Assembly: GCA_964410585.1 (NCBI GenBank)
Contig: CAYPFW010000001.1
Span: forward strand, 68,781 to 132,780
Origin: an uncultured archaeon
Lineage (GTDB): Archaea > Aenigmatarchaeota > Aenigmatarchaeia > QMZP01 > JACQNV01
Direction of reading: 5' to 3'
DNA: 64,000 bases
Below the pieces are notes generated by a model, which saw only the letters and a program-made list of their open reading frames with translations, was not told where the DNA came from and did no database searches. Made by a program: the position numbers and the translations under genes. This document shows positions 22,793 to 61,928 of the stretch, in pieces; the first letter of the stretch is position 1, and every line of letters starts with the position of its first letter.

Positions 22793-22881
22793 ATTACAAC
22801 TATAGTTCTTTTGGGTACTGTAGACTTTTCTCAGATTTCGGCCTTATAACATAAGGTCCTTTCATTTTAAGAAAAGGCTAG

Positions 22882-37244: not shown

Positions 37245-37323
37245 GGAAGCCGTAATTTTTTCGAGCTTGCAGGCGAAGAAAAAATAGGCTCCGTTTTTGA
37301 TTAACCTTTTGGACTAAAAGGTT
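37245..37323 (+). promoter_or_regulatory. conserved leader element, copy A (upstream of spt4)
   Basis: GGAAGCCGTAATTTTTTCGAGC...GCGAAGAAAAAATAGGCTCCGTTTTTGATTAACCTTTTGGACTAAAAGGTT then ATG; carries compensatory changes relative to copies B-E. Confidence 0.6.
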
Positions 37324-37509
37324 ATGAAAAGCGAAAAGGTTTGTAAAATTTGCAAAAGGTTTGTACAGGGCGATGAGTGCCCAATTTGCAGAGACAAAGC
37401 TTTCTCAAGATCATGGAAAGGCGTCGTCATAGTCAATGATATAAACTCAGAAATTGGCCAAACAGTTGGAGCCAAATCACCTGGGAAATATTGCATCTGG
37501 GTAAGATGA
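37324..37509 (+). CDS. spt4: transcription elongation factor Spt4 / RNAP subunit E''
   Basis: 61 aa zinc ribbon CKICK...CPICR, C-terminal GKYCIWVR. Confidence 0.7.
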   Translation: MKSEKVCKICKRFVQGDECPICRDKAFSRSWKGVVIVNDINSEIGQTVGAKSPGKYCIWVR

Positions 37510-37510
37510 G

Positions 37511-37550
37511 CCCCTTTTCTTAGAAAGAAAAGGCCCTCGGGTTCAAAAGA
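37511..37550 (+). terminator. conserved 3' hairpin element, copy 1 (after spt4)
   Basis: CCTTTTCTT-aga-AAGAAAAGG stem then CCCTCGGGTTCAAAAGAAC. Confidence 0.4.
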
Positions 37551-37591
37551 ACTACTTTACAAACATATAAACTATCAAAACATGATATTGT

Positions 37592-37673
37592 GGAAGGCGT
37601 TTAAAATTTTTTCGAACAGCAGTGAGAAAAAATTTAGCCTCCTGTTTTGGTTAAGCTTTTAGGATAAAAGGTT
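37592..37673 (+). promoter_or_regulatory. conserved leader element, copy B (upstream of rps24e)
   Basis: GGAAGGCGTTTAAAATTTTTTCGAAC...AGAAAAAATTTAGCCTCCTGTTTTGGTTAAGCTTTTAGGATAAAAGGTT then ATG. Confidence 0.6.
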
Positions 37674-37994
37674 ATGAATATAGAAATTGTACACACAAAG
37701 GAAAACCCTTTGCTAGAAAGGCAGGAAGTTGAAGTTTTAGTTAAACATGACTCTGCTTCTACTCCTAAGAGAGCAGATCTTCTAGTCGAATTAGCAAGCA
37801 AACTAAAAACAGAACAAGAACTTCTGATTTTGGAAACAATAAAAACCAACAAAGGTCAGGCTCAAACAATAGGCAGAGTTTTGGTATACCAGAAAAAAGA
37901 ATCTGTTCCAAAAGACAAGCTCGAAAAAATGCAAAACAGGATTTCTGGCAAAAAGAAAGAAGCAGCTGCACCTGCACCAAAGAAAAAAGAATAA
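37674..37994 (+). CDS. rps24e: ribosomal protein S24e
   Basis: MNIEIVHTKENPLLERQEVEVLVKH... S24e N-terminus. Confidence 0.8.
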   Translation: MNIEIVHTKENPLLERQEVEVLVKHDSASTPKRADLLVELASKLKTEQELLILETIKTNKGQAQTIGRVLVYQKKESVPKDKLEKMQNRISGKKKEAAAPAPKKKE

Positions 37995-37995
37995 A

Positions 37996-38124
37996 ATGAC
38001 TAATTCTATAGAATGTATCCAATGCGGAAAGAAAATGATTCACTACCAATGCAAAGATGTCTGCCCATATTGTGGAGCAAAACTAGATTGTTCTGATTTT
38101 GATCAGCCAGGACAAACTAAATAG
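37996..38124 (+). CDS. small zinc-ribbon protein, possibly ribosomal protein S27ae
   Basis: Unlisted 42-aa ORF MTNSIECIQCGKKMIHYQCKDVCPYCGAKLDCSDFDQPGQTK directly after rps24e (conserved archaeal synteny). Confidence 0.45.
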   Translation: MTNSIECIQCGKKMIHYQCKDVCPYCGAKLDCSDFDQPGQTK

Positions 38125-38301
38125 ATTTTCCTAAACAATTAGAGCAAACTTTCCCAGAAAAATGTTTCTGACAAACTAAAGACCCACAGAGAGAGCAGGA
38201 TAAATTTGCCCTCTTTCCACAGACCGAACACAGTCCTGATATCATACATTATTTTTTGTTCTTTTTCTTCCTATATCTTTTGATGTTTCTGTCGCTTGTT
38301 C

Positions 38302-38496
38302 TCATAAAACAGTTCCACCTCTCTTATCGTATTGTTTACCTAAACAGTTTTTGCAAAGTCTCAATGTATGGTGAAAGCAGCTCACGCAAACATTTGCATC
38401 GCACACATTGCACGAATTAAACTTCTCAGTTACCCTATTGCAAGCTGCGCAAAGTTTTGCTTTTTGTGAGCCAAATAACTCTTTGCCTTGGGCCAT
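38302..38496 (-). CDS. small Cys-rich zinc-finger-like protein
   Basis: 64 aa with 8 Cys in C-x2-C spacing. Confidence 0.4.
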   Translation of the reverse strand: MAQGKELFGSQKAKLCAACNRVTEKFNSCNVCDANVCVSCFHHTLRLCKNCLGKQYDKRGGTVL

Positions 38497-38600
38497 ATTA
38501 TTATTAATGTTTTGATATTAATAACTTAGATAAGCTGAGATGGCGGAGTACTTAATTGAGTTTCAGTTTTGTACGTATTGGTAACGCGCACGCCTGGAAA

Positions 38601-38650
38601 GCTAGCCTTTTCTTTTCAAAAAGAAAGGTCTACCGTATCCAAAAGAAAAC
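38601..38650 (+). terminator. conserved 3' hairpin element, copy 2 (inside tRNA locus)
   Basis: GCTAGCC-TTTTCTTTTC-AAAAAGAAAGG-TCTACCGTATCCAAAAGAAAAC. Confidence 0.4.
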
Positions 38651-38663
38651 GATTTACAAACAT

Positions 38664-38745
38664 GGAAGGCGTAAAAATTTTCGAGTTGAGACGAAGAAAA
38701 TTTTAGCCTCCTTTTTGGATTAACCCTTTTCTCAAAAAGGGTTAT
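38664..38745 (+). promoter_or_regulatory. conserved leader element, copy C (upstream of the tRNA 3' segment)
   Basis: GGAAGGCGTAAAAATTTTCGAG...GAAGAAAATTTTAGCCTCCTTTTTGGATTAACCCTTTTCTCAAAAAGGGTTAT. Confidence 0.55.
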
Positions 38746-38800
38746 AGAAAGCGTGTGCCCTTGTGGCTCCAGAGTTCGAATCTCTGTCTCAGCGTGCTAC

Positions 38801-38840
38801 TCTTTCTTTAGAAAAGAAAGAGCACCGTCCAGAAAGAAAC
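38801..38840 (+). terminator. conserved 3' hairpin element, copy 3 (after tRNA 3' end)
   Basis: CTCTTTCTTT-aga-AAAGAAAGAG then CACCGTCCAGAAAGAAAC. Confidence 0.4.
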
Positions 38841-38949
38841 TACAATACAAACACACATCAAACAAAATTGTAATATACCAAAGAGAAACAATATACAATA
38901 AACCAAAGAAGGCTAGAGTACCCAAAAAACTAATTTACAAAAACAATCT

Positions 38950-41010
38950 CTATGATTTTCTGCCTTCCCTTTCCTGCTTTTTTATTGACTCTCCGATCCT
39001 CTTTCTATCTCCTTCATATCCAAGATTTCTTAAAGATGAATGCAAGCCCAAGTCGTAAAGAATTCTAGCTATCTGATATCCTGTTAATCTGTCTTCTGGC
39101 ATCCTAGACAAAACATATTTGCTATCCCCATTGACTAATCTTAGTTTGCTAATCTGGTCCCTTGTGTAAGTATCAGATGCAGAAAATGGAACATATCCAT
39201 TTGTGCTTGGTCTTGTTGCCAGATATCTTCCCAATTCTATTTTTGCTTTCTCAGGATCTGTTGGCAGACCAAGTCCAGATAAAATAGCATCCCTGATTTT
39301 GGGGTTTTGACTTCCAAGCGCAAACTGTGCAAGATCTGTTTTTCTAGCTCTGCCATTATTGATAAGAGGTTTTATTCCGGCCATAGCAGGCAGTGACCTG
39401 TAAAGCCTGTTCATACCATTATGATCTAAGGTTCCACCCAAATCAACAATCTTCGGTTCTGCCGCTTGTTTTACAGCTTCTTCGTGTGCATAGTGAAGTC
39501 CTAAAACATAATCTGAATCATATCCAAAATGGCCCAAAACTTTCTCAGCTCTGTTTAAGTCCATCTTTTCAATAACTCTTTGTTCAAGTAGATCCTTTGG
39601 TACACCGTTTTCGCCTAATGTAATGCCAATTGCAGCTAATTCTTTTCTAAGTGCTCCATCATCTTCCACACCAAAAGCTTGTCTGAGTCTGTCATTTCCA
39701 TATCTGCTTGAATCAACTACTTGAGCCTGCGGAACAGCAACTTTGACAGCCGGAGGAGCAGGCGTTTGTACTACAGGTTTTCCGTCCTTGACTTCTGCTG
39801 GTTTTTGTTCTACAGCCAAAACTTTTGGATCAACTCCTTTTTTCCTAGCAAATTCAATTAGCCATGTATCTGCTTTATCTTGAATATACAACCCTCTGCC
39901 AGTTCTAGGTGTTTTAGAGCCCCTAAATATGGAGTATGCATCATGATATGATAAGTCTGGATCAATTCTTTTCATTCCTTCGTATATATCTGAGAACCTT
40001 ACTGTCTTAGAATCTGAGTCAGAAACCGATTTTGCCGGAGTCTTTGGTTTTGCATATTTATCAATCTCTGCTAAAAATTTCCTTCTCTTTGCATCTGATA
40101 TACCTCTCATTGATGTAACATAATTTTTTGCATGTTCTACAGTCAGATTGCCTGCTTTTACTCCTCTTTTACTTAGAACTTGATATATGCATCCATATTC
40201 TCTTCCTGTTATTTCAGACAAAGCTGTAATTGTTATTCTTTGTGGTTCAATTTTTGGTTCTTCCACTATGGCGCTAGCTACAGCGCTTTTTGGTGATCTA
40301 GGTGTGTATTGATTAAGTCTACCCAATATAGCCTCTCTTTGAGTGGGAGAAACTCTCCTCATGTCATTTAAAACATAATCTCTTGCATCACCTACTGTTA
40401 TTTCCGACGACTCTATTCCTTTGTTTTCAAAAACACCTAAAATCGTATTAATGTTCCTTCCTGTAATTTCAGCTAAATCTCTTGCAGTTATTCTCTGTTT
40501 AGGATCAGTTTTAGGATGCTCTTTTGTTGCCACATGTGCTGTGTCTGCTGGTTTTCTTGGTTCTACAGCTCCAACACTTTCTTCATACAAAAAGTCAACC
40601 AATCCTTCAGAAGAAGAGATTCCTCTGACTCTTTCTGGAGACAAACTAAAAACAACTCTCAAATCTTTTCCCTTAATGACTTTTTCTATTTCCTTCTGTC
40701 CAGAAAAACTTGCAGGCTCATCTGAATATCTTCCATCAACAACTTTGGCTAACAGTGGTTTTTTCGAGTTGAAATCCAAAATCAGATGAGTTGGTCTGTA
40801 TTCAATTCCAACAACTTCACCTTTTTCATTTCCAAATCTCACAGGATATTCAGATACAGAAATTCTAAGAGGTTCTCCACCAACAACAGATGCCCCACTT
40901 GAAAAATTATTTCCAACAGGTTCTCCTGTAATTATGCTATTGCTCAAGCTATCCATGAATGTCGGCGGTGTGCCTTCGGGCTTCGCTTTTACTTCTACTT
41001 TTAGTACCAT
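38950..41010 (-). CDS. hypothetical 686-aa protein with internal ~65-aa repeats
   Basis: Paired segments QRITARDLAEITGRNINTILGVFENKG... and QRITITALSEITGREYGCIYQVLSKRG...; Ala/Arg/Gly-richer than neighbours. Confidence 0.6.
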   Translation of the reverse strand: MVLKVEVKAKPEGTPPTFMDSLSNSIITGEPVGNNFSSGASVVGGEPLRISVSEYPVRFGNEKGEVVGIEYRPTHLILDFNSKKPLLAKVVDGRYSDEPASFSGQKEIEKVIKGKDLRVVFSLSPERVRGISSSEGLVDFLYEESVGAVEPRKPADTAHVATKEHPKTDPKQRITARDLAEITGRNINTILGVFENKGIESSEITVGDARDYVLNDMRRVSPTQREAILGRLNQYTPRSPKSAVASAIVEEPKIEPQRITITALSEITGREYGCIYQVLSKRGVKAGNLTVEHAKNYVTSMRGISDAKRRKFLAEIDKYAKPKTPAKSVSDSDSKTVRFSDIYEGMKRIDPDLSYHDAYSIFRGSKTPRTGRGLYIQDKADTWLIEFARKKGVDPKVLAVEQKPAEVKDGKPVVQTPAPPAVKVAVPQAQVVDSSRYGNDRLRQAFGVEDDGALRKELAAIGITLGENGVPKDLLEQRVIEKMDLNRAEKVLGHFGYDSDYVLGLHYAHEEAVKQAAEPKIVDLGGTLDHNGMNRLYRSLPAMAGIKPLINNGRARKTDLAQFALGSQNPKIRDAILSGLGLPTDPEKAKIELGRYLATRPSTNGYVPFSASDTYTRDQISKLRLVNGDSKYVLSRMPEDRLTGYQIARILYDLGLHSSLRNLGYEGDRKRIGESIKKQEREGRKS

Positions 41011-44102: not shown

Positions 44103-44149
44103 CTAGCCTTTCTTTTCAGAAAAGAAAGTCTACCGTACCCAAAGAAAAC
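44101..44149 (+). terminator. conserved 3' hairpin element, copy 4 (after rps19)
   Basis: AGCTAGCC-TTTCTTTT-caga-AAAGAAAG-TCTACCGTACCCAAAGAAAAC; overlaps the rps19 stop codon. Confidence 0.45.
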
Positions 44150-44168
44150 GGTATACAGGTTGATAAAT

Positions 44169-44552
44169 ATGTTAAAGTATTCCTTGAATCTAAAGCCAGA
44201 GAAGTCGGCAAAAGTTTACGGTTCAGGCTTGAGAATCTCAACAAAAAATTCAGCAATTGTTTGCAGATCAATAAACGGCATGCAACTTCAAAAAGCAAAA
44301 AAATTTTTGTTGAGAGTTTTGGAAGAAAAAAGTGAAATAAACGGCCGATACTACACAAAAACAACATCAACTGTCCTGGATATGATCTTGTCAGCAGAAA
44401 AAAACGCAGAATTCAAGGGTTTGGACACAGACAGACTTTTTGTCCACGCAGCTGCACAAGCAGGTTACAGGTTTTACAGACCTAGGAGAATGAAAATGCG
44501 AGGACAGCAAAGAAAGGTCTCAAATTTACAAATAGTATTGGAGCAGAGGTAA
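44169..44552 (+). CDS. rpl22: ribosomal protein L22 (uL22)
   Basis: Start set to the ATG 9 nt into the ORF-track frame; synteny between S19 and S3. Confidence 0.8.
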   Translation: MLKYSLNLKPEKSAKVYGSGLRISTKNSAIVCRSINGMQLQKAKKFLLRVLEEKSEINGRYYTKTTSTVLDMILSAEKNAEFKGLDTDRLFVHAAAQAGYRFYRPRRMKMRGQQRKVSNLQIVLEQR

Positions 44553-45627: not shown

Positions 45628-45930
45628 ATGGCAGTTTGTCCTAATTGTGGCTTACCAAAAGAAATTTGTGCATGTGAAAGCATAGCACGCGAAGAGGAAA
45701 AGATAAAAGTTTTTTCTGAAAAAAGAAGATACTCACGTCCTATCACAATAATCCATGGTTTGAGCAAGAGTGCTGATAGCAAAGGTATTTTGAAAGAGTT
45801 AAAAACCCGCTTGGCTTGTGGTGGAACAATAAAAAACAATGAAATCGAGCTGCAAGGCGAGCATGTTGAAAAAGTCAAACAACTTTTGCTCAAACTCGGT
45901 TTCCAAAAGGAACAGATAGAAGACTTTTAG
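45628..45930 (+). CDS. sui1: translation initiation factor aSUI1 (eIF1 homologue)
   Basis: N-terminal CPNCG...CAC zinc ribbon and SUI1 core RPITIIHGL ... LACGGTIKNNEIELQG. Confidence 0.8.
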   Translation: MAVCPNCGLPKEICACESIAREEEKIKVFSEKRRYSRPITIIHGLSKSADSKGILKELKTRLACGGTIKNNEIELQGEHVEKVKQLLLKLGFQKEQIEDF

Positions 45931-45966
45931 CACTTTTCTTTTTCTGCTCAGTTTTGAAAAAAGAAA

Positions 45967-46088
45967 TCGTGTCTCTTTGGTTATATTGTGACACGAGATT
46001 GAGTGAGCTTGTCTCACTCAAGATGTGCTCACTGCTCATGTGCTGTTGCACATGACATCTCAGCATCTATTTCACAGTGAGATGCTGA
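45967..46088. other. cluster of four consecutive stem-loops between convergent sui1 and the ArsR-like gene
   Basis: TCGTGTC/GACACGA; TTGAGTGAG/CTCACTCAA; CATGTGC/GCACATG; TCAGCATCT/AGATGCTGA, GC-richer than surroundings. Confidence 0.5.
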
Positions 46089-46145
46089 CCTGCACTAAAG
46101 AAAACAAGCGATTGACTTCAAAAAAATATACAACTAGATACTCTA

Positions 46146-46757
46146 TTAATTTATTTCCATCCTATACTTCTTCGGCAAACCAAATGACGCCACCATCATG
46201 ACTGCACCGATCACAAGAAAAACTATTGTATACAAGCTGAATTCAGGTTCTTGTTCAGTTTCAACTGTTTGTATAATAGAAGTATCTTCTCTTTCTTTAT
46301 TTTCAGTCTCATTAAAGGAACTAGCTGCTTTGAGAGCTCCTGTGACTTTTTCTTGACTGATAACTGAAGGACTTGTTAAAGCAGCATCTGCCAAACTATT
46401 TATTTCATATTGACTAGAAAACTGAGATGAATAAGGCTGAAAAAATGTTGCAAAGGCTCCCAAAAATATCAATCCACCTAAAACCAAAATAACAACAAAT
46501 TGCGGTGTGTATTGCGGTTTCACTAAAGTATTTCCTTTTTCAGTTAGTTCATAGTAAATCCATTTATGTCCAGTTTCCTTTCTTTGAATTAGTCTAGAGT
46601 CTTCTAAATTTTTCAAGTGTTCAGAAATTGTGGAGGCTGCCATTCCAAATTCTTTGGCTAACTCAGTCGGCATTTTCCTTCTCCTGGCTAAACTTTTCAG
46701 TATATCTATTCTTGTCTCTGATGAGAGCGATTTTATCGTAGTCCTATCAAGCTCCAT
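46146..46757 (-). CDS. ArsR-family winged-helix regulator fused to transmembrane segments
   Basis: HTH region MPTELAKEFGMAASTISEHLKNLEDSRLIQRK followed by two predicted TM helices. Confidence 0.65.
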   Translation of the reverse strand: MELDRTTIKSLSSETRIDILKSLARRRKMPTELAKEFGMAASTISEHLKNLEDSRLIQRKETGHKWIYYELTEKGNTLVKPQYTPQFVVILVLGGLIFLGAFATFFQPYSSQFSSQYEINSLADAALTSPSVISQEKVTGALKAASSFNETENKEREDTSIIQTVETEQEPEFSLYTIVFLVIGAVMMVASFGLPKKYRMEIN

Positions 46758-46798
46758 ATTTAGTGTTTATTTTGTCTTGTTTAAATATGACCTGATAT

Positions 46799-46818
46799 TA
46801 TTCGGTTTCTGCCGAATA
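46799..46818. promoter_or_regulatory. perfect palindrome upstream of the ArsR-like gene (candidate operator)
   Basis: TATTCGG-tttctg-CCGAATA about 40-60 nt upstream of the start codon at 46757. Confidence 0.4.
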
Positions 46819-46929
46819 GTTTGCATAGTCATTTGTTCTTACAAAAAAAGATAAAATATGAATAGATATGTGATAATAATTTCGTTTCTAACAGGTTTTT
46901 CGATAGTGGTTTCTACAATTTTTTTATAG

Positions 46930-47250
46930 TTAAGGGAAAATAATGTGTCTTGATTTGTCAACCCTTGTCCAATCACCCTCACTTGTTTCATATGCCACTA
47001 ATCTTCTATTGAAAAAAGTTAGCTTTTTCGGATCGTGTTCTAATGGAATAGGTCCACCATACTCTATCCTATGTGGACCAAACTTTTCCTCAACCCAAGC
47101 ACCTATGCCGTTTATTGTAAATCTCCATAGGGTGTATTCATAATTTCCAAAAAATCTTCTACACCTTTTTTGTTCAGTTGGTTCTCTGATATGAAAACCA
47201 AGTGCTCTCATCTGCTGTACGAATCCGGGTATCATATATAGGTCTGTCAT
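46930..47250 (-). CDS. hypothetical protein (106 aa)
   Basis: ORF track only. Confidence 0.4.
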   Translation of the reverse strand: MTDLYMIPGFVQQMRALGFHIREPTEQKRCRRFFGNYEYTLWRFTINGIGAWVEEKFGPHRIEYGGPIPLEHDPKKLTFFNRRLVAYETSEGDWTRVDKSRHIIFP

Positions 47251-47279
47251 TCAAAAAGTATATAAGATAGTTTTAAATT

Positions 47280-49196: not shown

Positions 49197-49244
49197 CCAG
49201 CTAGCCTTCTTTTAGAAAAAGAAGGCTACCGTACCCAAGAAAAC
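49197..49244 (+). terminator. conserved 3' hairpin element, copy 5 (after DUF59 gene)
   Basis: AGCTAGCCTTCTTTT-aga-AAAAGAAGGCTA-CCGTACCCAAGAAAAC; followed by TTTATAAATA TATA-like box before rps17. Confidence 0.45.
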
Positions 49245-49290
49245 TATAATTCACATTTATAAATACCTCATTTCTATATACTAAGATAAT

Positions 49291-49716: not shown

Positions 49717-49798
49717 GGAAGGCGTAAAATTTTTCCGAGCAACAGCGAAGAAAAATTTAGCCTCCTGTTTTGCTTAAGCTTTTGGGACAAAAGCTTAT
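49717..49798 (+). promoter_or_regulatory. conserved leader element, copy D (upstream of rpl14)
   Basis: GGAAGGCGTAAAATTTTTCCGAGC...GCGAAGAAAAATTTAGCCTCCTGTTTTGCTTAAGCTTTTGGGACAAAAGCTTAT then ATG. Confidence 0.6.
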
Positions 49799-52083: not shown

Positions 52084-52161
52084 GGAAGGCGTAATTTTTT
52101 GCAAGCAACAGCGAAGCAAAAAATAGCCTCCGTTTTTGCTTAAGCTTTTGACTAAAAGCTT
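52084..52161 (+). promoter_or_regulatory. conserved leader element, copy E (upstream of rps14)
   Basis: GGAAGGCGTAATTTTTTGCAAGC...GCGAAGCAAAAAATAGCCTCCGTTTTTGCTTAAGCTTTTGACTAAAAGCTT then ATG. Confidence 0.6.
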
Positions 52162-52383: not shown

Positions 52384-52387
52384 TCCT

Positions 52388-52458
52388 AACCTTTTAGGAA
52401 AAGGTTAAGGTTCACCCAAAGAAACTACAGCTGAGTTCAACAAAGCTACCGTACCCAA
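52388..52458 (+). terminator. conserved 3' hairpin element, copy 6 (after rps14), bipartite
   Basis: AACCTTTT-agg-AAAAGGTT then AAGGTTCACCCAAAGAAAC ... AGCTACCGTACCCAAAAATC. Confidence 0.4.
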
Positions 52459-52524
52459 AAATCAAAAATATACAAATTTGGGAACCCAGAGAAACAGTAT
52501 ACAAAATCAATTGACGAGGAAAAT

Positions 52525-59364: not shown

Positions 59365-60339
59365 TTAACCCTTAACATTCCCAACGGGAACCAACTTGAC
59401 AACTTTTTGAGAAATATCTTCATCAAGTCTATTTTTCTTTGATTCTATATATTTATCGAGAGCTACCTTTTTGATAAACCAGTTCCTTCCTATCTTGTGT
59501 GCTTCTATTTTTCCCTTTCTTGCAAGCAGGCTAAGATATTCTTGTGAATATGGTGTGCCTTTTGATGCTTGCTCCAGGCTTATAAATTCCGGTCCCTTTT
59601 TGAAAGCATCCAAATAAAAGTCTAGGCTTCTTTCCACATTGCGAGCAATAAAATTTGCAAATGGTTTAATGTCTCCTGAATCTGCTTTTCTAAGTTTGTC
59701 ATAGTATTTATTCCTATCAACTTTTAGTACCATCGTTATTGGATATCCATGTTTCATCAAAAAGAGGTTCATGATCAATCTTGATGTTCTCCCATTACCA
59801 TCTGTGAATGGGTGTATTTCAACTAGTTTATAGTGTATAATTGCCGCGAGTTCTATAACATTCAAATTTTCTGGGTTGTTAGAGACATATTCTATAAACT
59901 CTTTCATTTTGTCAGGGACTTTTTCAAACCTTGGCGGACTTTTTACAGCTCCCAAAATTCTTACATTTACATCTCTGTATCTGCCTGCATATTCATCATC
60001 AATACCTGTCAAAATTATCTTGTGAACTCCCTTTATTGTATCCTCTGTTATTTGAGATGTTTTGTTTACAATGTCTTCCAAAAATTCAAAAGCTTTTTGG
60101 TGGTTTATAGCCTCAAAGTGTTCCCTTAAAGGTTTTCCTTTTATTGTAATGCCTTCCTCTATAACAAGTTTTGTTTCTCTTAATGTAAGCGTGTTGCCCT
60201 CTATAGCATTTGAATTGTATGCCAATTCTATTGCAAACTGTTTTCTCAAATTCTCCAATGCAGATTTCGGCAATGGTCTTAGCGCGTCCAATTCCTTCTT
60301 CTTTTTAACTATTCTTTGGTATAATTCTTGATCTATCAT
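59365..60339 (-). CDS. fic: Fic/DOC-family protein with C-terminal winged-helix domain
   Basis: Fic motif HPFTDGNGRTSR; last 16 codons copy the rtcB C-terminus. Confidence 0.8.
   Translation of the reverse strand: MIDQELYQRIVKKKKELDALRPLPKSALENLRKQFAIELAYNSNAIEGNTLTLRETKLVIEEGITIKGKPLREHFEAINHQKAFEFLEDIVNKTSQITEDTIKGVHKIILTGIDDEYAGRYRDVNVRILGAVKSPPRFEKVPDKMKEFIEYVSNNPENLNVIELAAIIHYKLVEIHPFTDGNGRTSRLIMNLFLMKHGYPITMVLKVDRNKYYDKLRKADSGDIKPFANFIARNVERSLDFYLDAFKKGPEFISLEQASKGTPYSQEYLSLLARKGKIEAHKIGRNWFIKKVALDKYIESKKNRLDEDISQKVVKLVPVGNVKG
59368..59415. repeat. 48-bp direct repeat, copy 1 (3' end of fic)
   Basis: ACCCTTAACATTCCCAACGGGAACCAACTTGACAACTTTTTGAGAAAT; 45/48 identical to copy 2. Confidence 0.85.
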
Positions 60340-60443
60340 ATCTATATATTGTATCGGATATCTTATAAATCTATCTATCCGATATATTAGAATACAGTAT
60401 CGGATGCAACTGATTTTAATCTATCCGATATTGGAAGAAACAG

Positions 60444-61928
60444 CTAACCCTTAACATTCCCAATTGGAACCAACTTGACAACTTTCTGAGAAATGCCAGC
60501 GTTGTGTGCTGATTCGATGACTTCGTCAATATCCTTGTACGCGCCACCAGCTTCTTCAGCTAAACCAGAGAACGAAACCGTTTTAACTAGAATTCCTCTC
60601 TTCTCCATATCTTTTTGTAGTTGCTCGCCTCTCCACTGCCTTTTCGCTGCGTTTCTTGACATTGTCCTTCCAGAACCGTGGCATGTTGATCCAAAAGTCT
60701 CTTCTTCTGCTTTTTTTGTGCCGACCAAGAGATATGAGCCAGTTTCCATTGAGCCACCGATGATCACAGGTTGTCCATCATCCCTGTAAATTTTAGGAAC
60801 CTCCTCCCTTCCAGGACCAAGGCTTCTGGTTGCGCCTTTTCTATGTACGATGACTTTTTTCTTTTTTCCATCAACTACATATTCTTCAATTTTAGCGGTA
60901 TTGTGCGCCACATCATACACTTGTTTCATTCCTAAACTTTCCGGTGACTGTTTGAAAACATCTGAGAATACCTCTCTGATTCTGTGCAAAATAACTTGCC
61001 TATTTGCAAAGCTCATGTTTATTCCAGTTTGCATTGCTTTGAAATAATCTTGTCCTTCAGGTGATTGGAAAGGAGCACAAGCAAGCTCCCTGTCCAAAAT
61101 TTTTATTTTGTATTTAGATTCCATCACAGACAAAAATTTGGTCAAATAATCTGTTGCAACTTGGTGGCCATATCCTCTTGAACCACAATGGAACATCAAA
61201 ACAATTTGATCTGGGAAAATCCCCCATTTTTTTGCAAGTTCTTTGTTGATTATGTTTTCTGGCAGAACTCTTTGGATTTCTAAATAGTGGTTTCCAGAAC
61301 CTAAAGTTCCTATCTGATCTTTACCTCTTTGGATAGCTTTGTCAGAAACTTTGGAAACATCTGCTGCTTTCATCCTTCCATTTTCTTCTGTCCTTTCCAA
61401 ATCCTCTTCCCAACCATATCCTTGCTTCACACACCACTCTGCACCAAGTTCAACAACTTCTTTGAATTGTTGTGCATTTAGTTTCACAAAACCAGAAGAT
61501 CCAACACCTGCAGGAACTCTATCGTATAGTTTATTTACTAAGTTTCTTAGTTGAGGTTGGACATCTTTGAAAGTGAGATTTGTCAACACAAGACGCATGC
61601 CGCAGTTAATATCAAACCCTATTCCACCTGGAGAAATCACACCTTCTTCTAAATCAAACGCAGCGACACCGCCAATCGGAAAACCGTATCCCCAGTGTCC
61701 ATCTGGCATACAGTATGCAAATTTCTGAATTCCGGGCAAGTTTGCGACATTGGTTATTTGGTCGTAGACTCCTGGGTCCATTTCGTTGACCAATTTCTTT
61801 GACGCGACAATTCTTGCCGGCACATTCATGCCAGTTTTGTGGGTTTTAGGGATTTCCCAGATGTATGGTGTGATCTGCTTGATTTCTTTTGGCTTCTCTA
61901 TTCTGATCTGAGATCCTTCTTCGTTCAT
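60444..61928 (-). CDS. rtcB: tRNA-splicing ligase RtcB
   Basis: GGSMETGSYLLVGT and GSTCHGSGR motifs, 494 aa, C-terminus KLVPIGNVKG. Confidence 0.9.
   Translation of the reverse strand: MNEEGSQIRIEKPKEIKQITPYIWEIPKTHKTGMNVPARIVASKKLVNEMDPGVYDQITNVANLPGIQKFAYCMPDGHWGYGFPIGGVAAFDLEEGVISPGGIGFDINCGMRLVLTNLTFKDVQPQLRNLVNKLYDRVPAGVGSSGFVKLNAQQFKEVVELGAEWCVKQGYGWEEDLERTEENGRMKAADVSKVSDKAIQRGKDQIGTLGSGNHYLEIQRVLPENIINKELAKKWGIFPDQIVLMFHCGSRGYGHQVATDYLTKFLSVMESKYKIKILDRELACAPFQSPEGQDYFKAMQTGINMSFANRQVILHRIREVFSDVFKQSPESLGMKQVYDVAHNTAKIEEYVVDGKKKKVIVHRKGATRSLGPGREEVPKIYRDDGQPVIIGGSMETGSYLLVGTKKAEEETFGSTCHGSGRTMSRNAAKRQWRGEQLQKDMEKRGILVKTVSFSGLAEEAGGAYKDIDEVIESAHNAGISQKVVKLVPIGNVKG
60447..60494. repeat. 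48-bp direct repeat, copy 2 (3' end of rtcB)
   Basis: ACCCTTAACATTCCCAATTGGAACCAACTTGACAACTTTCTGAGAAAT. Confidence 0.85.

Follow-up and report, generated by a model that had tools for sequence, protein, structure and literature searches.

In a small, A/T-rich archaeon of the DPANN type, the spacer between the translation factor gene SUI1/aIF1 and a convergent ArsR-family regulator gene carries four consecutive perfect hairpins. The explanation we favour, with roughly even confidence, is that this array is a recent, lineage-specific insertion of palindromic DNA, ~122 nt long, that originated at the DNA level between the U-tract terminators of the two genes. The insertion would span positions ~45967/45969 to ~46088/46090 of the DNA analysed here, a 64-kb stretch (the window) of a genome of ~600 kb, and would occupy the short untranscribed gap between the two terminators. 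SUI1 is the final plus-strand gene of an L23-L2-S19-L22-S3-L29-SUI1 ribosomal protein block, and the ArsR-like gene faces it on the minus strand. A first-pass annotation of the same DNA had described this convergent pair and its 215-nt spacer, and both were confirmed by the open reading frames and by Pfam matches to the two proteins. The coordinates of these and other features are collected in Table 1.

Table 1. Features of the SUI1/ArsR-like spacer and other elements of the window (positions are those of the window; stems are given as left arm/right arm; L010 is a syntenic relative described in the text)
Feature	Position	Strand	Description
SUI1/aIF1 gene	45628..45930	+	Pfam PF01253, E = 2e-18
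Putative SUI1 U-tract terminator	45934..45955	+	TTTT-C-TTTTT then TTTT, 3 nt past the stop, ahead of the array
Hairpin 0	45935-45966		A/T-rich inverted repeat TTTCTTTTT/AAAAAGAAA, 14-nt loop; abuts the array
H1 (hairpin 1)	45967-45996		TCGTGTC/GACACGA, 7-bp stem, 16-nt loop, -9.6 kcal/mol
H2 (hairpin 2)	45999-46021		TTGAGTGAG/CTCACTCAA, 9-bp stem, 5-nt loop, -10.7 kcal/mol
H2-H3 linker	46022-46035		GATGTGCTCACTGC
H3 (hairpin 3)	46036-46055		TCATGTGC/GCACATGA, 8-bp stem, 4-nt loop TGTT, -11.4 kcal/mol
H4 (hairpin 4)	46060-46088		TCAGCATCT/AGATGCTGA, 9-bp stem, 11-nt loop, -11.2 kcal/mol
Right flank	46090..46105	+	CTGCACTAAAGAAAAC; conserved; L010 counterpart TCTGCACTAGAAAA directly after hairpin 0
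Putative ArsR-gene U-tract terminator	46097..46124	-	T7 (46118-46124) plus TTTTCTTT (46097-46104), between stop and array
ArsR-family winged-helix (HTH) gene	46146..46757	-	PF01022, E = 8e-13; C-terminal membrane segment
Rearrangement hotspot after SUI1	45931-47279		
Poorly coding region	37994-38950		~950 nt
Cys-rich ORF	~38006-38125		CxxC...CxxC
Interrupted tRNA gene	38528-38797		insert of ~145-150 nt at ~38597-38750
Structured leader family	37250-37323, 37590-37673, 38660-38745, 49725-49798, 52090-52161		GTGGAAGGCG, A/T hairpin, AGCCTCC, hairpin ending at ATG
3' hairpin family	22795-22880 (minus), 37513-37560, 38598-38650, 38800-38850, 44105-44168, 49199-49260, 52386-52480		T/A-rich stem, often AGA loop, then (C)TACCGTACCCAAAGAAAAC, then TATA-like word
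Candidate operator array	60339-60444		about five copies of the palindromic word ATCCGATA/TATCGGAT, overlapping inverted repeats

An inverted-repeat search of the window found four non-overlapping perfect hairpins at 45967-46088, with stems of 7, 9, 8 and 9 bp, exactly where the first-pass annotation had placed four perfect stem-loops with stems of 7-9 bp. Their clustering exceeds chance. When the window was shuffled 100 times with its dinucleotides preserved, the largest group of hairpins that did not overlap (7 bp or more, 3 or more G/C, all inside 130 nt) numbered two or fewer in 99 shuffles and three in the remaining one, against four in the real array, which is the densest hairpin cluster of the 64 kb. 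Relative to shuffled sequences, the 122-nt array folds with z = -3.9 (plus strand) and z = -4.5 (minus strand). Every one of the 33 stem pairs is Watson-Crick, with no G-U pair among them, and the two strands fold about equally well. An origin at the DNA level would yield such symmetry, which genes for RNAs under long selection usually lack. The array had been called GC-rich, a description that holds relative to the spacer flanks (28-32% GC) but not in absolute terms, since the array itself has 44.3% GC against 36.9% for the window. The four hairpins had also been described as different in sequence; their stems do differ, but short words are shared across them in both orientations, with four occurrences each of AGTGAG (as AGTGAG/CTCACT) and AGATG and three of ATGTGC. 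This reuse of words lies above a hairpin-preserving null model (P ~0.02) and gives rise to competing pairings (I9-I12) among the hairpins. H2 is rivalled by a pairing of AGTGAGC (46002-46008) with GCTCACT (46027-46033), which replaces it in the plus-strand MFE structure of the whole block, and the loop of H1 holds a TATA-like GTTATATT.

Perfect palindromes of this kind, with AGTGAG/CTCACT recurring among them, might also serve as binding sites. The array could be a cluster of operators or decoys for the ArsR-like regulator or for another dimeric factor, acting through AGTGAG-N5-CTCACT, CATGTGC-N4-GCACATG and similar palindromes, and the window does hold a second spacer with a repeated palindromic word, at 60339-60444. 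However, the four palindromes of the array are mutually different, their place is at the 3' ends of both genes, where no promoter is available for regulation, and they are absent from relatives, while the region upstream of the ArsR-like gene itself bears another palindrome, TATTCGG/CCGAATA. We therefore consider a role as protein-binding sites very improbable. The spacer at 60339-60444, judged by its repeats, looks like a candidate operator array upstream of the minus-strand gene that starts at 60339.

The array was absent from all five relatives examined (L010, L014, L019, L016 and L004). In three of these the same convergent gene pair exists without it. The locus L010 (ENA ERZ4903072) is fully syntenic with the window; its SUI1 is 93% identical in amino acids and 84.5% in nucleotides, its ArsR-like protein, at 54% identity, represents the nearest relative of that protein, and its spacer measures 124 nt. 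We aligned every possible 122-nt deletion of the window's spacer to the L010 spacer. The best alignments came from deleted blocks starting at 45962-45970, with a top score of 45.5 at 45968/45969 compared with 27 when the array was kept; the best deletion thus removes window positions 45968/45969-46089/46090, although a MAFFT alignment of these short, A/T-rich spacers is ambiguous and places its gaps differently. Once the array has been deleted in silico, hairpin 0 meets CTGCACTA(A)AGAAAA, and the two are neighbours in L010 as well. The more distant loci L014 (SUI1 84% identical in amino acids, ArsR-like protein 52%) and L019 (ArsR-like protein 45%) are also syntenic and have no spacer at all, the two genes overlapping by 4 nt and 8 nt, respectively. 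This series of overlapping genes, a 124-nt spacer in L010 and a 215-nt spacer in the window favours gain as the polarity of the change, and the comparison of these sequences suggests that the array was acquired within the lineage of the window alone.

The remaining loci differ in what follows SUI1. L016 holds the closest relative of SUI1 (96% identical in amino acids, 87.5% in nucleotides), and there the similarity is gone just past the stop codon, where a different plus-strand ORF is found. In L004 (SUI1 69% identical), unrelated small membrane-protein genes follow SUI1, and in L005-L009 Rpp29 or S17 comes directly after it. The divergence of L016 and the arrangements in L004-L009 indicate that the junction after SUI1 is evolutionarily labile. 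A comparison of L004, L005, L007, L010, L014, L016 and L019 shows the site behind SUI1 to be a hotspot of rearrangement in this clade; in the window's lineage it is taken up by an inverted two-gene block, consisting of the ArsR-like gene and a gene for a 106-aa protein without a Pfam match.

The flanks of the array resemble elements found elsewhere in the window. Hairpin 0 is similar to the window's family of T/A-rich 3' hairpins; taken alone it folds no better than shuffled sequences (z = 0.03), and in L010 a shorter, 6-bp version of it can be read (TCTTTT/AAAAGA). The right flank includes CNAAAGAAAAC, a word of the window's hairpin-plus-promoter modules that has four matches in the window against 0.75 expected. 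Hairpin 0 together with CTAAAGAAAAC is like the modules at 44105-44150, 49199-49250 and 38600-38650. The hairpins of the array share no sequence with these modules, and the array appears to split a module that is intact in L010. A blastn-short comparison likewise found no sequence in common between the array and either the leader family or the 3' hairpin family of the window, in agreement with the first-pass annotation.

The array lies beyond the sites at which transcription of the two genes would normally end. Neither strand of the array contains a run of four or more T; all such runs in the spacer lie in the flanks, so that U4+ tracts of the archaeal terminator type are present on both sides of the array and not within it. 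For SUI1 and for the ArsR-like gene alike, at least two U4+ tracts precede the array, and from their sequence and position we assign both flanking regions as putative terminators. On the minus strand, the right arm of hairpin 0 reads TTTCTTTTTT (45957-45966), which sets a U-tract directly past the array (T6 at 45957-45962). H1, with its 16-nt loop, is consequently followed by a T-run on that strand, the only one of the eight hairpin/strand combinations for which this is so; the plus strand has no U-rich sequence after the array. A scan for bacterial-type terminators and sigma-70 promoters returned no site. In archaea, termination rests on U-tracts, at least two U4 tracts give high efficacy and a hairpin is not required (PMC8716108), while in Haloferax a hairpin alone terminated 59% of transcripts (PMC7237163). 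The locus is like the archaeal U-tract terminators described for Methanococcus (aCPSF1/U-tract) in having several U4+ tracts just past each stop, and its one minus-strand hairpin followed by a U-tract is like hairpin-assisted termination at the Haloferax motif. It is unlike archaeal terminators in that the hairpins of the array lack U-tracts and are placed beyond the primary terminators.

If the array is an insertion between these terminators, RNA polymerase would reach it only by reading through the primary U-tracts. Minus-strand read-through from the ArsR-like gene would pass H4', H3', H2' and H1' and then UUUCUUUUUU, leaving the RNA with a highly structured 3' tail and a single end of the hairpin-plus-U-tract type. 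Since the U-tracts lie outside the array and its structure would be reached by read-through, any function would be accessory and not required. At most, the array might act as a fail-safe stop or a 3'-end stabiliser, chiefly for minus-strand read-through from the ArsR side, and such a role would limit antisense read-through between the highly expressed ribosomal-protein operon and the regulator gene.

Four consecutive perfect stems might equally come from selection on structure. The array could be a selected element in its own right, a fail-safe terminator or insulator that works in both directions, or a stabiliser of 3' UTRs, and would stop or stabilise transcripts escaping the U-tracts, preventing antisense interference. 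It sits exactly between the two convergent genes, whose spacer exceeds every other clearly bounded convergent spacer of the window in length, all of its hairpins are stable (-9.6 to -11.4 kcal/mol), H1' on the minus strand runs at once into UUUCUUUUUU, and the Haloferax result (PMC7237163) indicates that a hairpin without further elements can stop transcripts. These points have to be weighed against the occurrence of the same gene pair without the hairpins in L010 and without any spacer in L014 and L019, against the U-tracts that both genes possess ahead of the array, the lack of a U-tract after it on the plus strand and the empty terminator scan, and against the independence of archaeal termination from hairpins (PMC8716108). 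Other convergent spacers in the window measure -9 to 70 nt, save for one 307-nt gap (37994-38302) with a doubtful 64-aa ORF, itself in a poorly coding region, as a boundary. Because these spacers are short, the 215-nt spacer is unusually long and does not answer a general need of convergent pairs. We regard a selected terminator or stabiliser as rather unlikely. The bidirectional terminator offered by the first-pass annotation as one possibility is weakened by the position of the U-tracts.

We found no sign of a known or conserved RNA in the array. Rfam, which the first-pass annotation had suggested as a check, gave no match in the whole window at gathering thresholds, and a search of 45700-46400 at E<=10 gave only chance-level miRNA and lncRNA matches, none of them meaningful over the array. 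ARAGORN reported no tRNA or tmRNA in the window, though it missed an intron-containing tRNA at ~38534-38797; the array sequence has neither an acceptor nor a T-arm signature. The C/D-box sRNA arrangement is absent from both strands, the sole C-box-like word (ATGCTGA, one mismatch) overlapping the sole nearby CUGA. With regard to CRISPR or tandem repeats, the array yielded one 15-nt direct repeat pair of 73% identity, and its stems differ from each other. As the array is absent from the relatives, a generic conserved structured RNA would have no homologue there in which covariation could be sought. Decayed coding sequence was ruled out: alignment of the ArsR-like proteins extends to their last C-terminal residues, and SUI1 is full length. 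Two 58-aa ORFs over the array have no Pfam match and are absent from the protein collection.

A more specific possibility is an independent minus-strand sRNA of ~140 nt, which would extend from a TATA-like TGTATATT (~46125-46132) to the T6 at 45957-45962. The minus strand does combine a TATA-like element upstream, strong structure (z = -4.5) and a U-tract immediately downstream, and TATA boxes ~25-35 nt upstream of leaderless starts are the promoter pattern of this genome. Nevertheless, TATA-like words are common in a genome of 37% GC, the T-rich stretch of the proposed sRNA also serves as the putative ArsR-gene terminator, there are no C/D boxes and no Rfam match, the stems contain no G-U pairs and fold about equally on both strands, and none of the relatives examined has the array. 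An independent sRNA therefore seems improbable to us. The structured ncRNA that the first-pass annotation had put forward gains no support from the Rfam search at E<=10 or from the five relatives; of the two observations it had named as speaking against an RNA, a lack of conservation in related genomes is what we found.

No second copy of the array was found by blastn-short in the 64-kb window or in the related loci that we fetched, and 87 kb of those loci contain no similar hairpin cluster, so that the search for comparable arrays elsewhere, another check suggested at first pass, came back empty over this range. Four pattern scans of IMG/VR returned one chance match inside a phage gene, two scans of JGI metagenomes (one of them tolerating loop changes) found no copy, and blastn against phages and plasmids found none either. 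The ends of the array, GTGTCTC... and ...GCTGACC, are not complementary and thus do not form terminal inverted repeats. No direct repeat marks a target-site duplication at the indel boundaries set against L010, and no donor sequence was found in the sequences searched. In view of the missing terminal repeats, target-site duplication and donor, the mode of insertion is put forward as a proposal: the array might have arisen by fold-back or template-switch copying, or a small palindromic element might have inserted. Palindromic repeats had been the third option of the first-pass annotation. A palindromic DNA element or insertion is indeed the best fit; in the searched data the array is single-copy rather than part of a repeat family.

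Assemblies of the same strain add a complication. Logan contigs match the window with zero mismatches across 17.6 kb, and independent runs break off at the same places inside the array. Two contigs stop at 46021, the final base of H2, one contig, present in three samples, starts at 46032, and the 10 nt of linker between them (46022-46031) are covered by no same-strain Logan contig. With k = 31, these breaks mean that forty 31-mers starting at 45992-46031 were unresolved in the assemblies. They could mean either population heterogeneity at 46022-46031 or the presence of the central 70 nt (45992-46061) in a second context, and the latter would revive the idea of a mobile element. Ends of Logan contigs (L017, L018, L002, L003) coincide with the final base of a perfect hairpin at 38822 and 49228 too, as they do at 46021, and the only break away from a hairpin is at 44405/44431. 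Fold-back chimeras were rejected as the cause of these ends, as they predict 46021 and 49228 but not 46032 or 38822.

The array might thus be a copy, or carry the core, of a small mobile MITE- or REP-like palindromic element with more copies in the genome or the community. The clean indel against L010 and the rearranged junction among relatives would fit such an element, and the Logan ends at 46021/46032 would match a 70-nt repeat (45992-46061) occurring in two contexts. On the other hand, the searches of the window, the 87 kb of related loci, IMG/VR, the JGI metagenomes, phages and plasmids brought no second copy to light, neither terminal inverted repeats nor a target-site duplication is visible, and micro-heterogeneity at 46022-46031 accounts equally well for the contig breaks. 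We think a mobile element of this kind quite unlikely. A related, similarly doubtful idea is that the array or its 70-nt core represents an undescribed palindromic element of DPANN archaea, either a mobile hairpin cassette found in more than one context in the source community or the ~140-nt minus-strand sRNA; were this true, the identical contig breaks would reflect real multi-copy status or programmed heterogeneity.

In broader terms, the array belongs with the extragenic palindromic stem-loops of 3' intergenic DNA, a familiar kind of feature. Bacterial REP/BIME elements are clusters of stable palindromic stem-loops that also lie 3' of genes in intergenic DNA, in many cases where two genes converge; they are credited with stabilising the 3' ends of mRNAs or attenuating read-through, and their presence varies between close relatives. 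REPs come in many copies with a common consensus and have links to RAYT (IS200/IS605-like) transposases. The array resembles them as a lineage-specific cluster of palindromic stem-loops between convergent genes; it is unlike them in being single-copy in the searched data, in having four different stems, in its archaeal host and in the lack of a transposase nearby. Archaeal MITEs, such as the SM elements of Sulfolobus, are small, highly structured, non-coding intergenic insertions that occur in many copies and are marked by terminal inverted repeats and target-site duplications. The array is like them as a small structured intergenic insertion, but none of the MITE hallmarks was found here. A third comparison is with quasipalindromes made by template switching, a single event of which usually makes one short inverted copy. 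A block of 122 nt with four hairpins would hence need several events, and the nearest relative is too diverged for an ancestral arm to be identified. Template switching has been documented to generate perfect hairpins (PMC8794818, PMC5453318), and mutations of this type are like the array in their perfect Watson-Crick stems, their words in both orientations and their recent, lineage-specific occurrence.

Several further structured elements of the window were noted alongside the array. An interrupted tRNA gene that ARAGORN missed has a 5' part with the acceptor strand GCTGAGA, the anticodon stem CACGC and the loop CTGGAAA, and a 3' part that reads GCGTG / long variable arm / CAGAG-TTCGAAT-CTCTG / TCTCAGC-G. 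Its insert, which is probably accompanied by a second short intron, carries a 3' hairpin, CTACCGTAYCCAAAAGAAAAC and the leader module known from the intergenic spacers of the window. With the insert deleted in silico, ARAGORN does recognise a tRNA that retains an intron of 20-36 nt; the choice of splice point decides whether it is read as Val-CAC or Ser-GGA. Members of the structured leader family precede small genes at 37324, 37674, 49799 and 52162, the second of which presumably encodes ribosomal protein S24e; the copy inside the tRNA insert has no ORF after it. The layout of the 3' hairpin family suggests intergenic modules in which a terminator and a promoter are combined. The interrupted tRNA and several family hairpins fall in a region with little coding signal (37994-38950), together with a short Cys-rich ORF directly after the gene at 37674-37994. 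This ORF, which was below the length limit of the ORF list used, is possibly an S27ae-type zinc-ribbon protein.

To our knowledge, mobile hairpin elements and sRNAs of DPANN archaea are little described. If the array is indeed a young insertion, it would be a small, datable case of a compact DPANN genome gaining structured intergenic DNA, in which the states would be overlapping genes, a 124-nt spacer and a 215-nt spacer with four perfect hairpins. The significance would be greater if the core proved to be multi-copy or expressed. As an insertion, the array would also indicate that structures can arise without conserved RNA genes, and it would thereby call for caution in ncRNA screens that use folding energy only.
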